The notes beneath the pieces were generated by a model. The model was not told where the DNA came from, ran no database searches, and saw nothing but the letters and a program-made list of their open reading frames with translations. Below are positions 1,299-54,023 of a DNA stretch of 64,000 bases, piece after piece. Origin of the DNA: Escherichia coli (lineage in GTDB: Bacteria > Pseudomonadota > Gammaproteobacteria > Enterobacterales > Enterobacteriaceae); assembly GCF_003334255.1 (NCBI RefSeq), contig NZ_QOWU01000013.1; one strand, 5' to 3'. How positions within the stretch are numbered: position 1 is the first letter of the stretch; the number at the start of each line of letters is the position of its first letter. The position numbers and the translations under genes were made by a program.

Positions 1299-1386
1299 CT
1301 TTTTTAAATTGCCCCTAGATGAATGCACGGGCGGAGAGGAAATTCCCCTTCGCCCGTGTCAGTATAATTACCCGTTTATAGGGCGA

Positions 1387-3303
1387 TTATTTTTTGTCTT
1401 TGACTTCTTCAAATTCAGCGTCGACAACATCGTCATCTTTCGCGTTGTTTGCAGAAGCATCAGCACCGGCAGTCTGCTGCTGGGCATGTTGCTGCTGGGC
1501 GATTTCCATCAGTTTCTGGGAAACCTGTGCCAGTTCCTGCATTTTCGCTTCGATAGCGGCTTTGTCTTCACCTTTCAGAGCAGTTTCCAGTGCAGTCAGC
1601 GCAGACTCGATAGCAGTTTTGTCGTCAGCCGGCAGTTTGTCGCCTGCTTCTTCAACCTGCTTACGGGTGCTGTGCAGCAGATGGTCGCCCTGGTTGCGAG
1701 TCTGTACCAGCTCTTCAAACTTACGGTCAGCTTCGGCGTTAGCTTCTGCGTCGCGTACCATTTTCTGGATTTCATCTTCGTTCAGACCAGAAGAAGCCTT
1801 GATGGTGATCTTCTGCTCTTTACCGCTGTTTTTATCTTTCGCGGAAACGTGCAGGATACCGTCAGCATCGATATCGAAGGTAACTTCGATCTGCGGCATG
1901 CCGCGCGGTGCCGGGTTGATACCATCTAGGTTGAACTGACCCAGAGATTTGTTATCAGCCGCACGTTTACGTTCACCCTGCAGCACATGGATGGTTACCG
2001 CAGACTGGTTGTCTTCAGCGGTAGAGAACACCTGGCTGTGCTTGGTCGGGATAGTGGTGTTTTTCGCGATCAGCGTCGTCATCACACCGCCCATGGTTTC
2101 GATACCCAGAGACAGCGGGGTAACGTCCAGCAGCAGTACGTCTTTTACGTCACCAGTCAGAACACCACCCTGAACAGCAGCACCGATTGCTACAGCTTCG
2201 TCCGGGTTAACGTCTTTACGCGGCTCTTTACCAAAGAACTCAGCAACTTTCTTCTGAACCATTGGCATACGAGTCTGACCACCAACGAGGATAACGTCGT
2301 CGATATCAGATACGGACAGGCCAGCGTCCTGCAGTGCAACTTTCAGCGGCTCAATGGAACGGTTTACCAGATCTTCAACCAGGCTTTCCAGTTTCGCACG
2401 AGTCACTTTGATGTTCATGTGTTTCGGACCGGTCGCGTCTGCAGTGATGTATGGCAGGTTAACGTCGGTCTGCTGAGCGGAAGACAGTTCGATTTTCGCT
2501 TTTTCTGCCGCTTCTTTCAGGCGCTGCATTGCCAGCGGATCGTTGCGCAGGTCAATGCCCTGATCTTTCTTGAATTCTTCAACCAGATAGTTGATCAGAC
2601 GGCTGTCGAAGTCTTCACCCCCCAGGTGGGTATCACCGTTGGTTGCCAGAACTTCGAAGGTTTTTTCGCCGTCAACTTCGTCGATTTCGATAATAGAAAT
2701 ATCGAAAGTACCACCACCCAGGTCATAAACCGCGATAGTACGGTTGCCAGTGCCTTTGTCCAGACCGTAAGCCAGCGCAGCTGCGGTCGGTTCGTTGATG
2801 ATACGTTTTACTTCCAGACCAGCGATACGGCCTGCGTCTTTGGTTGCCTGACGCTGAGCATCGTTAAAGTATGCCGGTACGGTGATAACAGCTTCAGTTA
2901 CCGGTTCACCCAGGTAATCTTCAGCGGTTTTCTTCATTTTTTTCAGCACTTCAGCAGAAATCTGCGGCGGTGCCATTTTCTGGCCTTTAACTTCGACCCA
3001 TGCGTCGCCGTTATCAGCAGCAATAATTTTGAACGGCATGATGGAAACATCACGCTGTACTTCTTCGTCCTGGAAGCGGCGACCAATCAGGCGTTTAATC
3101 GCAAACAGAGTGTTTTGCGGGTTCGTCACTGCCTGACGTTTAGCCGGCTGACCAACTAGAGTTTCACCATCCTGGGTATAGGCAATGATAGAAGGCGTGG
3201 TGCGATCGCCTTCGGCGTTCTCCAGCACGCGAGGAGTGGTGCCATCCATAATCGCTACACAAGAGTTGGTAGTACCCAGGTCGATACCAATTATTTTACC
3301 CAT
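1387..3303 (-). CDS. dnaK: Chaperone DnaK (Hsp70), 638 aa
   Basis: Full-length [20 protein letters not shown] and IDLGGGTFD Hsp70 signatures; 88-bp spacer to dnaJ, typical dnaKJ operon. Confidence 0.98.
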
Positions 3304-16811: not shown

Positions 16812-17528
16812 ATGCAGACCCCGCACATTCTTATCGTTGAAGACGAGTTGGTAACACGCAACACGTTGAAAAGTATTTTCGAAGCGGAAGGCTATGATGT
16901 TTTCGAAGCGACAGATGGCGCGGAAATGCATCAGATCCTCTCTGAATATGACATCAACCTGGTGATCATGGATATCAATCTGCCGGGTAAGAACGGTCTT
17001 CTGTTAGCGCGTGAACTGCGCGAGCAGGCGAATGTTGCGTTGATGTTCCTGACTGGCCGTGACAACGAAGTCGATAAAATTCTCGGCCTCGAAATCGGTG
17101 CAGATGACTACATCACCAAACCGTTCAACCCGCGTGAACTGACGATTCGTGCACGCAACCTACTGTCCCGTACCATGAATCTGGGTACTGTCAGCGAAGA
17201 ACGTCGTAGCGTTGAAAGCTACAAGTTCAATGGTTGGGAACTGGACATCAACAGCCGTTCGTTGATCGGCCCTGATGGCGAGCAGTACAAGCTGCCGCGC
17301 AGCGAGTTCCGCGCCATGCTTCACTTCTGTGAAAACCCAGGCAAAATTCAGTCCCGTGCTGAACTGCTGAAGAAAATGACCGGCCGTGAGCTGAAACCGC
17401 ACGACCGTACTGTAGACGTGACGATCCGCCGTATTCGTAAACATTTCGAATCTACGCCGGATACGCCGGAAATCATCGCCACCATTCACGGTGAAGGTTA
17501 TCGCTTCTGCGGTGATCTGGAAGATTAA
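16812..17528 (+). CDS. arcA: Aerobic respiration control response regulator ArcA, 238 aa
   Basis: OmpR-family receiver (ILIVEDE...D54 region DINLPGKNG) plus winged-helix output domain. Confidence 0.97.
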
Positions 17529-49417: not shown

Positions 49418-50449
49418 ATGTCTGCATTTACCCCGGCAAGTGAAGTCTTGCTGCGTCACAGTGATGATTTCGAACAAAGCCGTATTCTGTTTGCCGGAGA
49501 CTTACAGGATGACCTGCCCGCGCGTTTAGATACCGCGGCCAGCCGTGCTCATACCCAGCAATTCCACCACTGGCAGGTATTAAGCCGCCAGATGGGGGAT
49601 AACGCCCGTTTCAGTCTGGTCGCCACGGCGGATGACGTCGCAGATTGCGATACGCTGATTTACTACTGGCCGAAGAACAAACCGGAAGCCCAGTTCCAGT
49701 TGATGAATTTACTTTCTCTGCTGCCAGTGGGGACAGATATTTTTGTCGTTGGCGAGAACCGCAGCGGCGTGCGCAGCGCCGAGCAGATGCTGGCAGATTA
49801 TGCGCCGTTGAATAAAGTCGACAGCGCTCGTCGCTGTGGCCTCTATTTTGGTCGTCTGGAAAAACAGCCGGTATTTGATGCGGAGAAATTCTGGGGCGAA
49901 TACAGCGTCGATGGCCTGACGGTCAAAACGCTGCCTGGCGTGTTTAGCCGCGACGGTCTGGATGTCGGTAGCCAGTTGCTGCTCTCGACGTTAACTCCGC
50001 ACACGAAAGGTAAAGTGCTGGATGTCGGCTGTGGCGCGGGCGTGCTTTCAGTTGCCTTTGCGCGCCATTCGCCGAAAATTCGTCTCACCTTGTGCGATGT
50101 CTCTGCCCCGGCGGTAGAAGCCAGCCGCGCAACACTTGCGGCCAACGGTGTTGAAGGTGAAGTCTTTGCCAGCAACGTCTTTTCCGAGGTGAAAGGTCGT
50201 TTTGATATGATCATCTCCAACCCGCCGTTCCACGATGGGATGCAAACCAGCCTGGATGCGGCGCAAACGCTGATTCGCGGTGCGGTGCGTCATCTTAATA
50301 GCGGCGGCGAGCTGCGAATTGTAGCGAACGCCTTCCTGCCTTATCCGGACGTGCTGGATGAGACATTTGGCTTCCACGAAGTGATCGCGCAAACAGGGCG
50401 CTTCAAGGTGTATCGCGCCATTATGACCCGCCAGGCGAAGAAAGGTTAA
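49418..50449 (+). CDS. rsmC: 16S rRNA (guanine1207-N2)-methyltransferase RsmC, 343 aa
   Basis: SAM-binding motif [11 protein letters not shown] and NPPFH catalytic motif. Confidence 0.92.
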
Positions 50450-50716: not shown

Positions 50717-50803
50717 GCGAAGGTGGCGGAATTGGTAGACGCGCTAGCTTCAGGTGTTAGTGTCCTTACGGACGTGGGGGTTCAAGTCCCCCCCCTCGCA
50801 CCA
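50717..50803 (+). tRNA. leuQ/P/V: tRNA-Leu (anticodon CAG), 87 nt, single copy
   Basis: GCGAAGGTGGCGGAATTGGTAGACGCGCTAGCTTCAGGTGTTAGTGTCCTTACGGACGTGGGGGTTCAAGTCCCCCCCCTCGCACCA: cloverleaf with long variable arm, anticodon loop TTCAGGT, encoded CCA end. Confidence 0.96.
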
Positions 50804-50841: not shown

Positions 50842-51078
50842 TCATCCCTGATTCAAATTCATTATCATCAGCATGATGCCAGCAATAAGTGCCAGGCACG
50901 ATGGTAGCAAAATGTAATGCCGCAACTGTTTGTGATACAGCATCATCGGCGTCAATACTAATCCCATCAGAATGACAATCCGCCACTGATCTGACGATAA
51001 ATCCGCATACATCAGCCCTGCAATCAGCAATCCCGGCAGCAACACTCCCCAGCCACTGCCCAGCGTACGTTGCAACAT
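50842..51078 (-). CDS. yjjZ: Small membrane protein YjjZ, 78 aa
   Basis: MLQRTLGSGWGVLLPGLLIAGLMYADL... hydrophobic small protein; the ORF-track product (115 aa) starts 37 codons upstream of the K-12 annotated start. Confidence 0.6.
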   Translation of the reverse strand: MLQRTLGSGWGVLLPGLLIAGLMYADLSSDQWRIVILMGLVLTPMMLYHKQLRHYILLPSCLALIAGIMLMIMNLNQG

Positions 51079-51096
51079 GATTTCATCTCTTTCATT

Positions 51097-51203
51097 GATA
51101 ATGATAACCAATATCATATGATAATTTTTATCATTTGCAAGCCAGATAAATCCCTTGCTATCGGGTAAACCTATCGCTAGGATTAGCAATCATTATCATT
51201 TAG
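51097..51203 (+). promoter_or_regulatory. Fur boxes in the fhuF promoter
   Basis: GATAATGATAACCAATATCATATGATAATTTTTATCATT (51097-51135) and GCAATCATTATCATTTAG (51186-51203) match the Fur consensus GATAATGATAATCATTATC. Confidence 0.7.
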
Positions 51204-51218
51204 ATTACTATCCCGATT

Positions 51219-52007
51219 ATGGCCTATCGTTCCGCACCGCTCTATGAAGATGTCATCTGGCGAACGCATCTCCAGCCGCAGGATCCCACGCTTGCGCAAG
51301 CCGTGCGGGCGACGATCGCAAAACATCGTGAACATTTGCTGGAGTTTATCCGCCTGGATGAACCTGCCCCACTTAACGCCATGACGCTGGCGCAATGGTC
51401 ATCACCGAATGTGCTAAGTTCTCTGCTGGCGGTCTATTCCGATCATATCTATCGCAACCAACCGATGATGATCCGCGAGAACAAACCGCTGATCTCACTA
51501 TGGGCACAATGGTATATCGGCCTGATGGTGCCACCATTAATGCTGGCGCTACTGACGCAGGAAAAGGCATTAGATGTGTCGCCGGAACATTTCCATGCTG
51601 AGTTTCACGAAACCGGACGCGTCGCCTGTTTCTGGGTCGATGTGTGTGAAGATAAAAACGCAACACCACATTCGCCGCAGCATCGAATGGAAACGTTAAT
51701 CAGCCAGGCGCTGGTTCCGGTTGTGCAAGCACTAGAAGCGACCGGAGAGATCAACGGCAAACTTATCTGGAGTAATACCGGTTATTTGATCAACTGGTAT
51801 CTCACTGAGATGAAGCAACTGCTCGGCGAGGCTACTGTTGAATCGCTGCGCCATGCCCTCTTTTTTGAGAAAACGCTCACGAACGGTGAAGATAATCCAC
51901 TCTGGCGTACCGTGGTACTGCGCGACGGCCTGCTGGTGCGCCGCACTTGCTGCCAGCGTTATCGCTTACCGGATGTGCAGCAATGTGGCGATTGTACGCT
52001 GAAATGA
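51219..52007 (+). CDS. fhuF: Ferric-siderophore reductase FhuF, 262 aa
   Basis: C-terminal C-C-x10-C-x2-C cluster (RRTCCQRYRLPDVQQCGDCTLK) typical of the FhuF 2Fe-2S site. Confidence 0.93.
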   Translation: MAYRSAPLYEDVIWRTHLQPQDPTLAQAVRATIAKHREHLLEFIRLDEPAPLNAMTLAQWSSPNVLSSLLAVYSDHIYRNQPMMIRENKPLISLWAQWYIGLMVPPLMLALLTQEKALDVSPEHFHAEFHETGRVACFWVDVCEDKNATPHSPQHRMETLISQALVPVVQALEATGEINGKLIWSNTGYLINWYLTEMKQLLGEATVESLRHALFFEKTLTNGEDNPLWRTVVLRDGLLVRRTCCQRYRLPDVQQCGDCTLK

Positions 52008-52044
52008 AAGCACTGCCGGGGAAGTAAACCCGGCATCATGCGGA

Positions 52045-52722
52045 TTAATAGGGATGCAACACATTACTTGTTTCGCAATGCCGCATACATAACAGAATAT
52101 CTGCGGCCTCCAACAACCCTGCGTCAGAACTGACGCCCAGTTTCGACATCACATTAAATTTATGTGCACGGATCGTTTTGATATTGCGTTTAAGCTGCTC
52201 GGCAATTTGTGTCATTGAGTAGCCACGCGACATAAAGCGCAATATTTCTCTCTCCGTCGGGCTTAACGTCCGGCTTTGGTTAATGTACCACTGATTGTTC
52301 AGTCGGTCGGTCGCCTGACGTACACCATTTAATGACAAAAAGAGTTCCTGATGAAAAATCTCCAGCGTTGACGCTTTACTTAATACACCGTCCAGCGGTG
52401 ATGGCGACAATGAACCAATCAGCCGAGCTTCAATATCATCATCCGCAATAACTAAACGCCGGGTACGCGGAAACTTAATCGCCAGTTCAGTCAGGCAAGA
52501 TAATCCCTCTCTGCGCTCACTTCTCATGGCAGAAAAAGAAAAAATGACCGCCGCAAACGAGATCCGCGACATGGCATCCTGAAATGACTCCTGACTGGTA
52601 TAGGTATGGAGCTTATAAGGGTTACCCGCAAACTTTCTGAATAAACTCTCAATACCGATACTACTCATGACGCATTTTTCTATGAGTGCGACATTTCTCT
52701 TCTTAATTCGGCTGTGTTCCAT
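52045..52722 (-). CDS. bglJ: LuxR-type transcriptional activator BglJ, 225 aa
   Basis: C-terminal LuxR/FixJ HTH ([36 protein letters not shown]). Confidence 0.88.
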
Positions 52723-53405
52723 TCTGCGGCATCTCCATAAACAGAAGGCAAGTTAAGTTCTCTTGCACCCTGCGCGCTATTTATCCATGCATACATTTCA
52801 GCGTTGCTGTGAATTGCCAGTCGACGCATCGCACTGTTTTTTTGGGCGCTGATAGTTTTATTACTTTTCTTAAGCAATGAAGCTATCTGGTTGATGCCCC
52901 ATCCTTTACCTAATAGCCGCAGTACCTTGCGCTCTGAAAGAGTGAGAATGACGGAGCGATAGCTAAAATCATGAGTTTCAGTCATTGCCGGGGAGGTCAG
53001 CATGGCGCTGATACGCTCTGCGTGCGTATTGCCGGAACGTACGGTCTTGACCAGATTCTCAATGGGTTCAACATCAGACAATAACGTCGCCGTAGGGCAC
53101 ATGAGCAGTTCTACTGCCTGGGAATACCAGGAGCGTGACACCATGAAAACCCAGTGAATTTCCCGATATTGTGAGATTAAAGAATAATAATGTTCACAAA
53201 CAGAACGTGGATCTTCACTTTCACCGGCTAAATCAGCAATGACTAATCCGGAACGACGTAATTGTAATAAGGTAAGGTCCTCCGCAGAGGCGCTGGATAT
53301 TATTTCATATTCAGGGAAGTGAGTCCTCATGACCTCTTTTAACCCTGCTTGCATAACAGGTATTTTACTGATAACAATTCCATTTTTGCAGCATCCTGGC
53401 AACAT
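52680..53405 (-). CDS. yjjQ: LuxR-type regulator YjjQ, 241 aa
   Basis: C-terminal LuxR HTH ([34 protein letters not shown]); overlaps the bglJ start (yjjQ-bglJ operon). Confidence 0.85.
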
Positions 53406-54023
53406 ATTTCCTCCACATCCACTGTCTAAAAATTATGATGGTTTATTCAGGATATTCATTCCTTAAATGTTTCCAGCAAATTAATAGATTAAGCGAATAA
53501 ATTATCCTTAGCATTCACTTTCATATCAGCATACTCCTGCTGCACAACAACTCCACTGCATGTGTCAGAAGGTTAGCATCAAATGATAACCTGGTGAAAT
53601 AGCCTGGAGACATTTAAAATATCTACATTAAGTTGTTAGGAATACTTAATGAAAAACAGAAATCACATTCATTTAATTTATAATTAAATGATATCCCTTC
53701 CCGCAGAATGCAAAATCACACAACCAATATTTATTCAATGAAATCTGATGGTTTTAGCTTGTTAACATTAAAAAACGTGCCCGGTTATCTATTATCCTGA
53801 TTCGTAAAGGCCAAACAATAAATTCATTATGATGATAATATTCATGTGATAGTTTGTTTGCGGCGAGAGATAATTCGCTTTTTATCACCGAGCTTCTCCC
53901 GATAACCAGGATTAATCAGCGCAATTTTGATCTTAACCTACCGCAAAACAACCGTGCTTCATGATACAAATGGATTCTCATTATCTGAACAATACGCAGC
54001 ACGTCTATGACAAAGGGCGAGTT

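Follow-up and report, generated by a model that had tools for sequence, protein, structure and literature searches.

The fhuF locus of Escherichia coli: a strong Fur cluster beside yjjZ, a weak Fur cluster over the fhuF start, and a C-terminal cysteine motif

Results

Gene organization at the fhuF locus

The window analyzed here is a 64,000-nucleotide stretch of DNA from a K-12-like Escherichia coli, and positions refer to it unless stated otherwise. The region of interest contains rsmC (49418–50449, plus strand), a tRNA-Leu(CAG) gene (50717–50803, plus strand), yjjZ (50842–51078, minus strand), fhuF (51219–52007, plus strand), bglJ (52045–52722, minus strand), and yjjQ (52680–53405, minus strand), the same order as in E. 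coli K-12. The fhuF open reading frame encodes 262 residues plus a stop codon and is annotated in RefSeq, as is yjjZ, its divergent neighbor. The yjjZ product is a hydrophobic 78-residue DUF1435 protein and a core member of the Fur regulon; an NCBIfam search with it returned no match. Among 5426 complete E. coli genomes, every one had a match to the segment 50400–52100, and the yjjZ-fhuF spacer was found in 5425. The segment is 100% identical to that of strain LR-33 and 99.9% identical to that of K-12 BW25113, counted from the tRNA onward.

The sole local difference from BW25113 is the tRNA-Leu copy number upstream of yjjZ, and fhuF and the spacer are unchanged. Between rsmC and yjjZ there is one copy of the tRNA-Leu(CAG) gene in the window, three tandem copies in BW25113, and two in LR-33. 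The flanks of the single copy are unaltered, with 268 nt to the rsmC stop codon and 39 nt to the yjjZ stop codon. The same one-copy layout occurs at 100% identity in the laboratory strains MC1061 and ME8067 and in the clinical strain N18-04097, so a genuine loss of copies by recombination within the array seems likelier than an assembly artifact.

A scan for intrinsic terminators returned none downstream of fhuF on the plus strand. It gave three matches on the minus strand, two within fhuF and one within yjjZ, against a chance expectation of 1.0. A 7-bp GC-rich hairpin (TGCCGGG/CCCGGCA with an 8-nt loop) lies at 52014–52035 in the gap where fhuF and bglJ converge; a T run is absent on both strands, and the terminator scan did not flag it. 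The spacer and the 5' untranslated region were considered as sites of a non-coding RNA, and this was rejected, as Rfam at the gathering threshold gave the tRNA only.

FhuF and its C-terminal cysteine motif

The product of the 51219–52007 open reading frame matches the Pfam FhuF domain (PF06276, E = 1.5e-26), and its residues 241–261 match FhuF_C over the entire model (PF11575, positions 1–21 of 21, E = 1.5e-6). The NCBIfam equivalog for siderophore-iron reductase FhuF, NF007932, aligns over residues 1–262 of 262 with 474.7 bits against a cut-off of 300, and TIGR03951 scores 230 bits against a cut-off of 63.85. Residues 18–262 are those of PDB entry 7QP5 apart from the engineered C143S of that construct, and RefSeq E. 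coli genomes label the equivalent open reading frame fhuF. On its domain, equivalog, and cysteine-motif matches, the protein is FhuF, a member of the ferric-siderophore reductase family. A preliminary description of this DNA, made by reading the sequence, had named the gene fhuF, and the Pfam, NCBIfam, PDB, and RefSeq comparisons agree. It had also called fhuF a known gene of low interest, correctly, as the gene, its control, its motif, and its structure are all published.

The protein ends in ...RRTCCQRYRLPDVQQCGDCTLK, which translation resolves as C244-C245-x10-C256-x2-C259. The codons for the four cysteines lie within 51948–51995 on the plus strand: C244 and C245 at 51948–51953, C256 at 51984–51986, and C259 at 51993–51995. 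In the 1.9 Å crystal structure of FhuF (PDB 7QP5; bioRxiv 10.1101/2023.07.04.547673), these four cysteines lie in one loop and ligate a 2Fe-2S cluster. Fe1 is held by C245 and C256 and Fe2 by C244 and C259, so that the adjacent cysteines bind different irons; native numbers are obtained by subtracting 24 from those of the structure paper (bioRxiv 10.1101/2023.07.04.547673). The same authors term the coordination unprecedented and the fold new. The C-C-x10-C-x2-C motif is the published defining feature of the ferric-siderophore reductase family (PMC8068687 among others). [quoted passage not shown] The cluster hands an electron to the Fe(III)-hydroxamate siderophore, and the iron is freed as Fe(II).

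The plant-type ferredoxins arrange their cluster ligands as C-x4-C-x2-C-x29-C. The statement that FhuF ends in a C-C-x10-C-x2-C motif spaced unlike these proteins holds in the translation. A "typical" spacing has been quoted as C-x2-C-x8-15-C-x2-C (PMC8068687). A Pfam search with FhuF gave no ferredoxin domain. Membership in the plant-type ferredoxins was considered and is ruled out by the ligand spacing, the missing ferredoxin domain, and the published fold. The spectroscopy of Cys-to-Ser variants that the preliminary description had proposed as a check is largely anticipated by the published crystal structure and spectroscopy of the cluster (PDB 7QP5; bioRxiv 10.1101/2023.07.04.547673).

A genome scan restricted to one genome per species yielded 12 fhuF loci, all from Enterobacteriaceae, making 13 sequences with the window. 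The C-terminal 22 residues of FhuF are identical across 11 intact orthologs, down to 65% overall identity. In the twelfth locus (L014, Citrobacter amalonaticus AUH_CA_2023_1, 1325–3287), fhuF is frameshifted, with a 787-nt match and a garbled C terminus, and the upstream gene for a GGDEF protein is likewise frameshifted and split over two frames. Assembly indel errors seem a more likely cause of these frameshifts than two independent pseudogenes.

Fur sites in the yjjZ-fhuF spacer

The window was scanned with a 19-mer Fur consensus and with the 7-1-7 Fur motif TGATAATNATTATCA. The first of two tandem boxes, GATAATGATAACCAATATC at 51097–51115, agrees with the 19-mer at 17 of 19 positions (2 mismatches). 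The second, at 51120–51138, has 4 mismatches to the 19-mer on its better strand and contains the 7-1-7 core TGATAATTTTTATCA (51119–51133) with 1 mismatch. The four 7-1-7 sites in the spacer begin at 51096 (2 mismatches), 51102 (2), 51119 (1), and 51184 (3); the first three overlap and make up the distal cluster. Shuffles of the window give an expectation of 0.01 for 19-mer matches with 3 or fewer mismatches. The 7-1-7 motif has seven matches with at most 3 mismatches in the window, four of them in this spacer, compared to 2.05 expected, and none of 100 shuffles reached seven. No sequence in the 64 kb matches the 19-mer better than the two tandem boxes, and the top three 7-1-7 matches are in the same cluster. 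The remaining 7-1-7 matches, at 16963–16977, 50853–50867, and 53830–53844, have 3 mismatches each and are probably chance occurrences, their number being at the shuffle level (2.05 expected).

Fur binding to this spacer has been studied by DNase I footprinting and gel shift, and two protected regions of high and low affinity were reported (Chen, Schneider et al. 2007; PMC2189734). Genome positions g of that study were converted to window positions w by w = 51219 + (4603686 − g), with the start codons of fhuF and yjjZ at 4603686 and 4603827. The two start codons are 141 nt apart both in PMC2189734 and in the window (51219 and 51078). The high-affinity footprint "fhuF1" at 4603763–4603815 converts to 51090–51142 and encloses both tandem boxes (PMC2189734). 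The strongest Fur site, 22.3 bits at 4603779 and −93 from the ATG (PMC2189734), converts to 51126, the center of the 7-1-7 match at 51119–51133, the core of the second box. The low-affinity footprint "fhuF2" at 4603680–4603733, with sites of 14.6 and 9.3 bits (PMC2189734), converts to the proximal cluster at 51172–51225. Our 7-1-7 scan recovers the same sites as PMC2189734, three strong and one weak. The tandem boxes of the preliminary description are real, with motif scores above chance and a published high-affinity footprint (PMC2189734) over them.

The weak site escaped the preliminary description. It is the 7-1-7 match TAGCAATCATTATCA at 51184–51198, with 3 mismatches, and it lies over the fhuF start as mapped in the Figure 5 legend of PMC2189734. 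The box spans 51184–51206 and includes the block AATCATTATCATTTAGATT (51188–51206), which is constant in all 13 sequences. The proximal cluster covers the fhuF −10 element, the transcription starts, and the start codon. The distal and proximal clusters are separated by about 30 bp edge to edge and about 82 bp center to center.

The in vivo data are published as well. The core regulon that Fur ChIP-exo defined over nine strains includes fhuF as well as yjjZ (PMC10164565), and fhuF is reported to be de-repressed in a fur deletion strain. The proposed comparison with Fur footprint or ChIP data is largely covered by the published footprint (PMC2189734) and ChIP-exo (PMC10164565). The general AT-richness of intergenic DNA, and nothing beyond it, speaks for the view that the Fur boxes are chance AT-rich sequence and the cysteine motif a coincidentally cysteine-rich tail. 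Shuffles expect 0.01 19-mer matches where two strand-matches are seen at one site, and 2.05 7-1-7 matches where seven are seen. DNase I footprints are published (PMC2189734), the four cysteines ligate the cluster (bioRxiv 10.1101/2023.07.04.547673), and the motif is invariant in the 11 intact orthologs even at 65% identity. Shuffles, footprints, structure, and conservation together refute a chance origin, to which we attach almost no probability.

Promoters and transcription starts

The fhuF transcripts start at 4603717 and 4603716 according to the Figure 5 legend of PMC2189734, which converts to two adenines, A51188 and A51189, on the plus strand. The core promoter that matches these starts has the −35 element TTGCTA (51155–51160), a 17-nt spacer, and the −10 element TAGGAT (51178–51183). 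It agrees with the consensus at 8 of 12 positions, under our scan threshold of 9 of 12. The CTTGC of the −35 region and the TA..AT of the −10 element are invariant in the 13 sequences, which represent four genera. Relative to the starts in that legend, the tandem boxes lie between about −50 and −91, with the −35 element of fhuF downstream of them. The preliminary description had placed one of them over the probable −10 region of fhuF, which does not fit starts at 51188/51189, given in that legend, that lie 50–91 bp downstream of the boxes. The Fur site over the fhuF core promoter and start is the weaker, less conspicuous proximal cluster (51172–51225), not the two tandem boxes.

The −10 element that was meant is probably TATGAT (51117–51122) or GATAAT (51120–51125). 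The tandem boxes do overlap a purely predicted upstream promoter that contains one or the other, TTGATA-16-TATGAT or TTGATA-19-GATAAT, with its −35 element at 51095–51100. An active fhuF promoter at this place would make the tandem boxes the fhuF operator proper, with Fur occluding the promoter inside them and a 5' untranslated region of about 90 nt. TTGATA-16-TATGAT is the best plus-strand sigma-70 match of the region at 10 of 12 positions, compared to the poor 8 of 12 of the proximal promoter, and within the spacer Fur binds most tightly to the distal cluster (PMC2189734). Shimada et al. list TTGATA-19-GATAAT as the predicted promoter for fhuF in an RpoD-holoenzyme binding peak. Against this, the starts in the Figure 5 legend of PMC2189734 are 60 nt downstream. 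Moreover, AT-rich Fur boxes resemble −10 and −35 elements, and consensus matches inside them are expected from composition alone. The comparison with related genomes, below, bears on the same point.

The distal cluster also contains a predicted sigma-70 promoter for yjjZ on the minus strand. Its −35 element is TTGCAA (51140..51135) and, after a 16-nt spacer, its −10 element is TATGAT (51118..51113), so that the predicted promoter (51113–51140) lies entirely within the cluster. Shimada et al. predict the same hexamers for yjjZ inside an RpoD-holoenzyme SELEX peak. Citrobacter and Salmonella keep them as CTGACA-17-TATGAT, and Klebsiella has ATGACA as the −35 element. These matches suggest that yjjZ is transcribed from 51113–51140. 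The strongest Fur operator of the window sits directly over this predicted promoter.

OxyR is described as a repressor of fhuF in published statements, including one in PMC8068687. The window was scanned with the OxyR consensus ATAG-N7-CTAT-N7-ATAG-N7-CTAT, and the best match among the roughly 64,000 positions, the single top score at 12 of 16, lies at 51160–51196. It extends over the promoter spacer, the −10 element, and the start of fhuF and overlaps the proximal Fur cluster. Fur and OxyR would therefore compete for or share the same DNA. The primary account of OxyR and of the fhuF start sites is reportedly that of Zheng et al. 2001.

Comparison with related genomes

The 12 related loci fall into two arrangements. 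Five are from Escherichia (E. albertii, E. whittamii, two further species of the genus, and a second E. coli) and have a divergent yjjZ and both Fur clusters. In the other seven, which are from Citrobacter, Salmonella enterica subsp. arizonae, and Klebsiella, the DNA just upstream of fhuF belongs to the 3' end of a gene read in the same direction, whose product of about 355 residues is a GGDEF diguanylate cyclase (TIGR00254, about 160 bits). This gene lies between yjjZ and fhuF in loci L007–L012 and L014 (for example at 1324–2388 of L008) and is missing from all Escherichia loci examined. Six of these seven loci are long enough to include yjjZ, and each has it on the upstream side of fhuF at a distance of about 1.4 kb. 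In the six, the tandem cluster GATAATGATAACCAATATCATATGATAA... lies 18 nt from the start codon of yjjZ, which likewise puts it about 1.4 kb away from fhuF. The fhuF gene has the proximal box only in 7 of 7 non-Escherichia loci, with the same −35 and −10 elements. Of the Fur-like sites upstream of fhuF, the proximal box AATCATTATCA alone is common to the 12 related loci.

The homology of the yjjZ side stops near 51141 of the window and that of the fhuF side starts near 51146. With this break at about 51141–51146, the 140-bp Escherichia spacer looks like two ends of a longer region that have been joined. Because Klebsiella, Salmonella, and Citrobacter all have the GGDEF gene, its loss in Escherichia appears to be the more parsimonious direction of change. 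The strong cluster stays beside yjjZ where the GGDEF gene intervenes. On this gene order, the two tandem boxes are therefore read as the yjjZ operator by descent, and the proximal cluster as the ancestral fhuF operator. In Citrobacter, S. arizonae, and Klebsiella, the strong cluster lies in the divergent region between yjjZ and the GGDEF gene, and the GGDEF cyclase may itself be iron-regulated.

These comparisons also count against an upstream fhuF promoter inside the tandem boxes. Its TTGATA element varies within Escherichia, being TCGATA in E. albertii and CTGATA in Escherichia sp. E1V33. In the other genera, the gene that the cluster faces is the GGDEF gene, with fhuF 1.4 kb away, and the proximal promoter is kept everywhere examined. 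Taken with the published starts, they leave the upstream promoter an improbable account of fhuF transcription.

Discussion

The explanation that we consider likely combines four elements: the known gene fhuF, a weak proximal Fur cluster over its start, a strong distal cluster that is the yjjZ operator, and a layer of control by OxyR. fhuF would be transcribed from the weak sigma-70 promoter TTGCTA-17-TAGGAT with its start at A51188/A51189. When iron is plentiful, Fur would silence fhuF through the two separate clusters in the 140-bp yjjZ-fhuF spacer. At the proximal cluster (51172–51225), the most likely action on fhuF is a direct block of RNA polymerase. At the distal cluster (51090–51142), iron-loaded Fur would occlude both predicted hexamers of the yjjZ promoter. 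OxyR would form a second layer of repression, with its predicted site over the same −10/+1 region as Fur.

How the distal cluster acts on fhuF in Escherichia admits two accounts. The absence of the GGDEF gene places the strong cluster about 46 bp from the fhuF start. As its concentration rises, Fur is known to spread from strong sites into the adjoining DNA, a behavior called "secondary footprinting" (PMC2189734). With only about 30 bp between the clusters in Escherichia, spreading from the strong distal cluster may aid the loading of Fur at the weak proximal site. We tentatively suggest that loss of the GGDEF gene fused the yjjZ operator to the fhuF promoter and gave rise either to Escherichia-specific cooperative repression from the two clusters or to an extra promoter in the distal cluster.

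Alternatively, the distal cluster serves yjjZ only, fhuF is controlled by the weak proximal box alone plus OxyR, and the closeness of the clusters is inconsequential. The strong cluster accompanies yjjZ and not fhuF in Citrobacter, Salmonella, and Klebsiella, and fhuF in these genera has only the proximal box. The fhuF::lacZ fusion, which we take to be the reporter of the Fur titration assay, would also fit a low-affinity operator. PMC2189734 lends weak support to that use of the fusion, and it is the source for Fur spreading from strong sites, which, with clusters only about 30 bp apart, weighs against a distal cluster without effect on fhuF. The 140-bp spacer is also very well conserved in E. 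coli, although at such low divergence this is uninformative. We regard a distal cluster devoted to yjjZ as possible, in about the same measure as the fusion of the two control regions. If the operators were indeed fused, the fhuF::lacZ Fur-titration reporter would be a lineage-specific composite operator, not a simple weak Fur site.

Earlier publications cover fhuF, its regulation by Fur and OxyR, both footprinted clusters, the cysteine motif, and the crystal structure. Only the synteny argument, which assigns the distal cluster to yjjZ and the proximal cluster to fhuF, is new here, and it offers a testable explanation for one strong and one weak cluster in the same spacer. The locus serves as a positive control, in that genuine Fur boxes and a metal-binding motif were recognizable from raw sequence. 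It also carries a caution: a promoter hexamer picked inside an AT-rich operator can implicate the wrong gene.

The locus can be set beside several known systems. PMC2189734 counts both clusters as the "fhuF promoter region," whereas by synteny the strong one belongs with yjjZ and the weak one with fhuF. The fhuF loci of Citrobacter, S. arizonae, and Klebsiella differ from those of Escherichia in that the GGDEF gene parts the strong cluster from fhuF. Their FhuF proteins are 65–80% identical to that of the window and have identical C-terminal 22 residues. FhuF shares four cysteine ligands and one-electron transfer with the plant-type and vertebrate-type [2Fe-2S] ferredoxins, but its first two ligands are adjacent residues on different irons, a single loop provides all four ligands, and the protein has a new fold. 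The closest comparison is FhuF of E. coli K-12 (b4367, PDB 7QP5), the archetype of the ferric-siderophore reductases, which is the same protein as that encoded in the window and has the same C-C-x10-C-x2-C motif.
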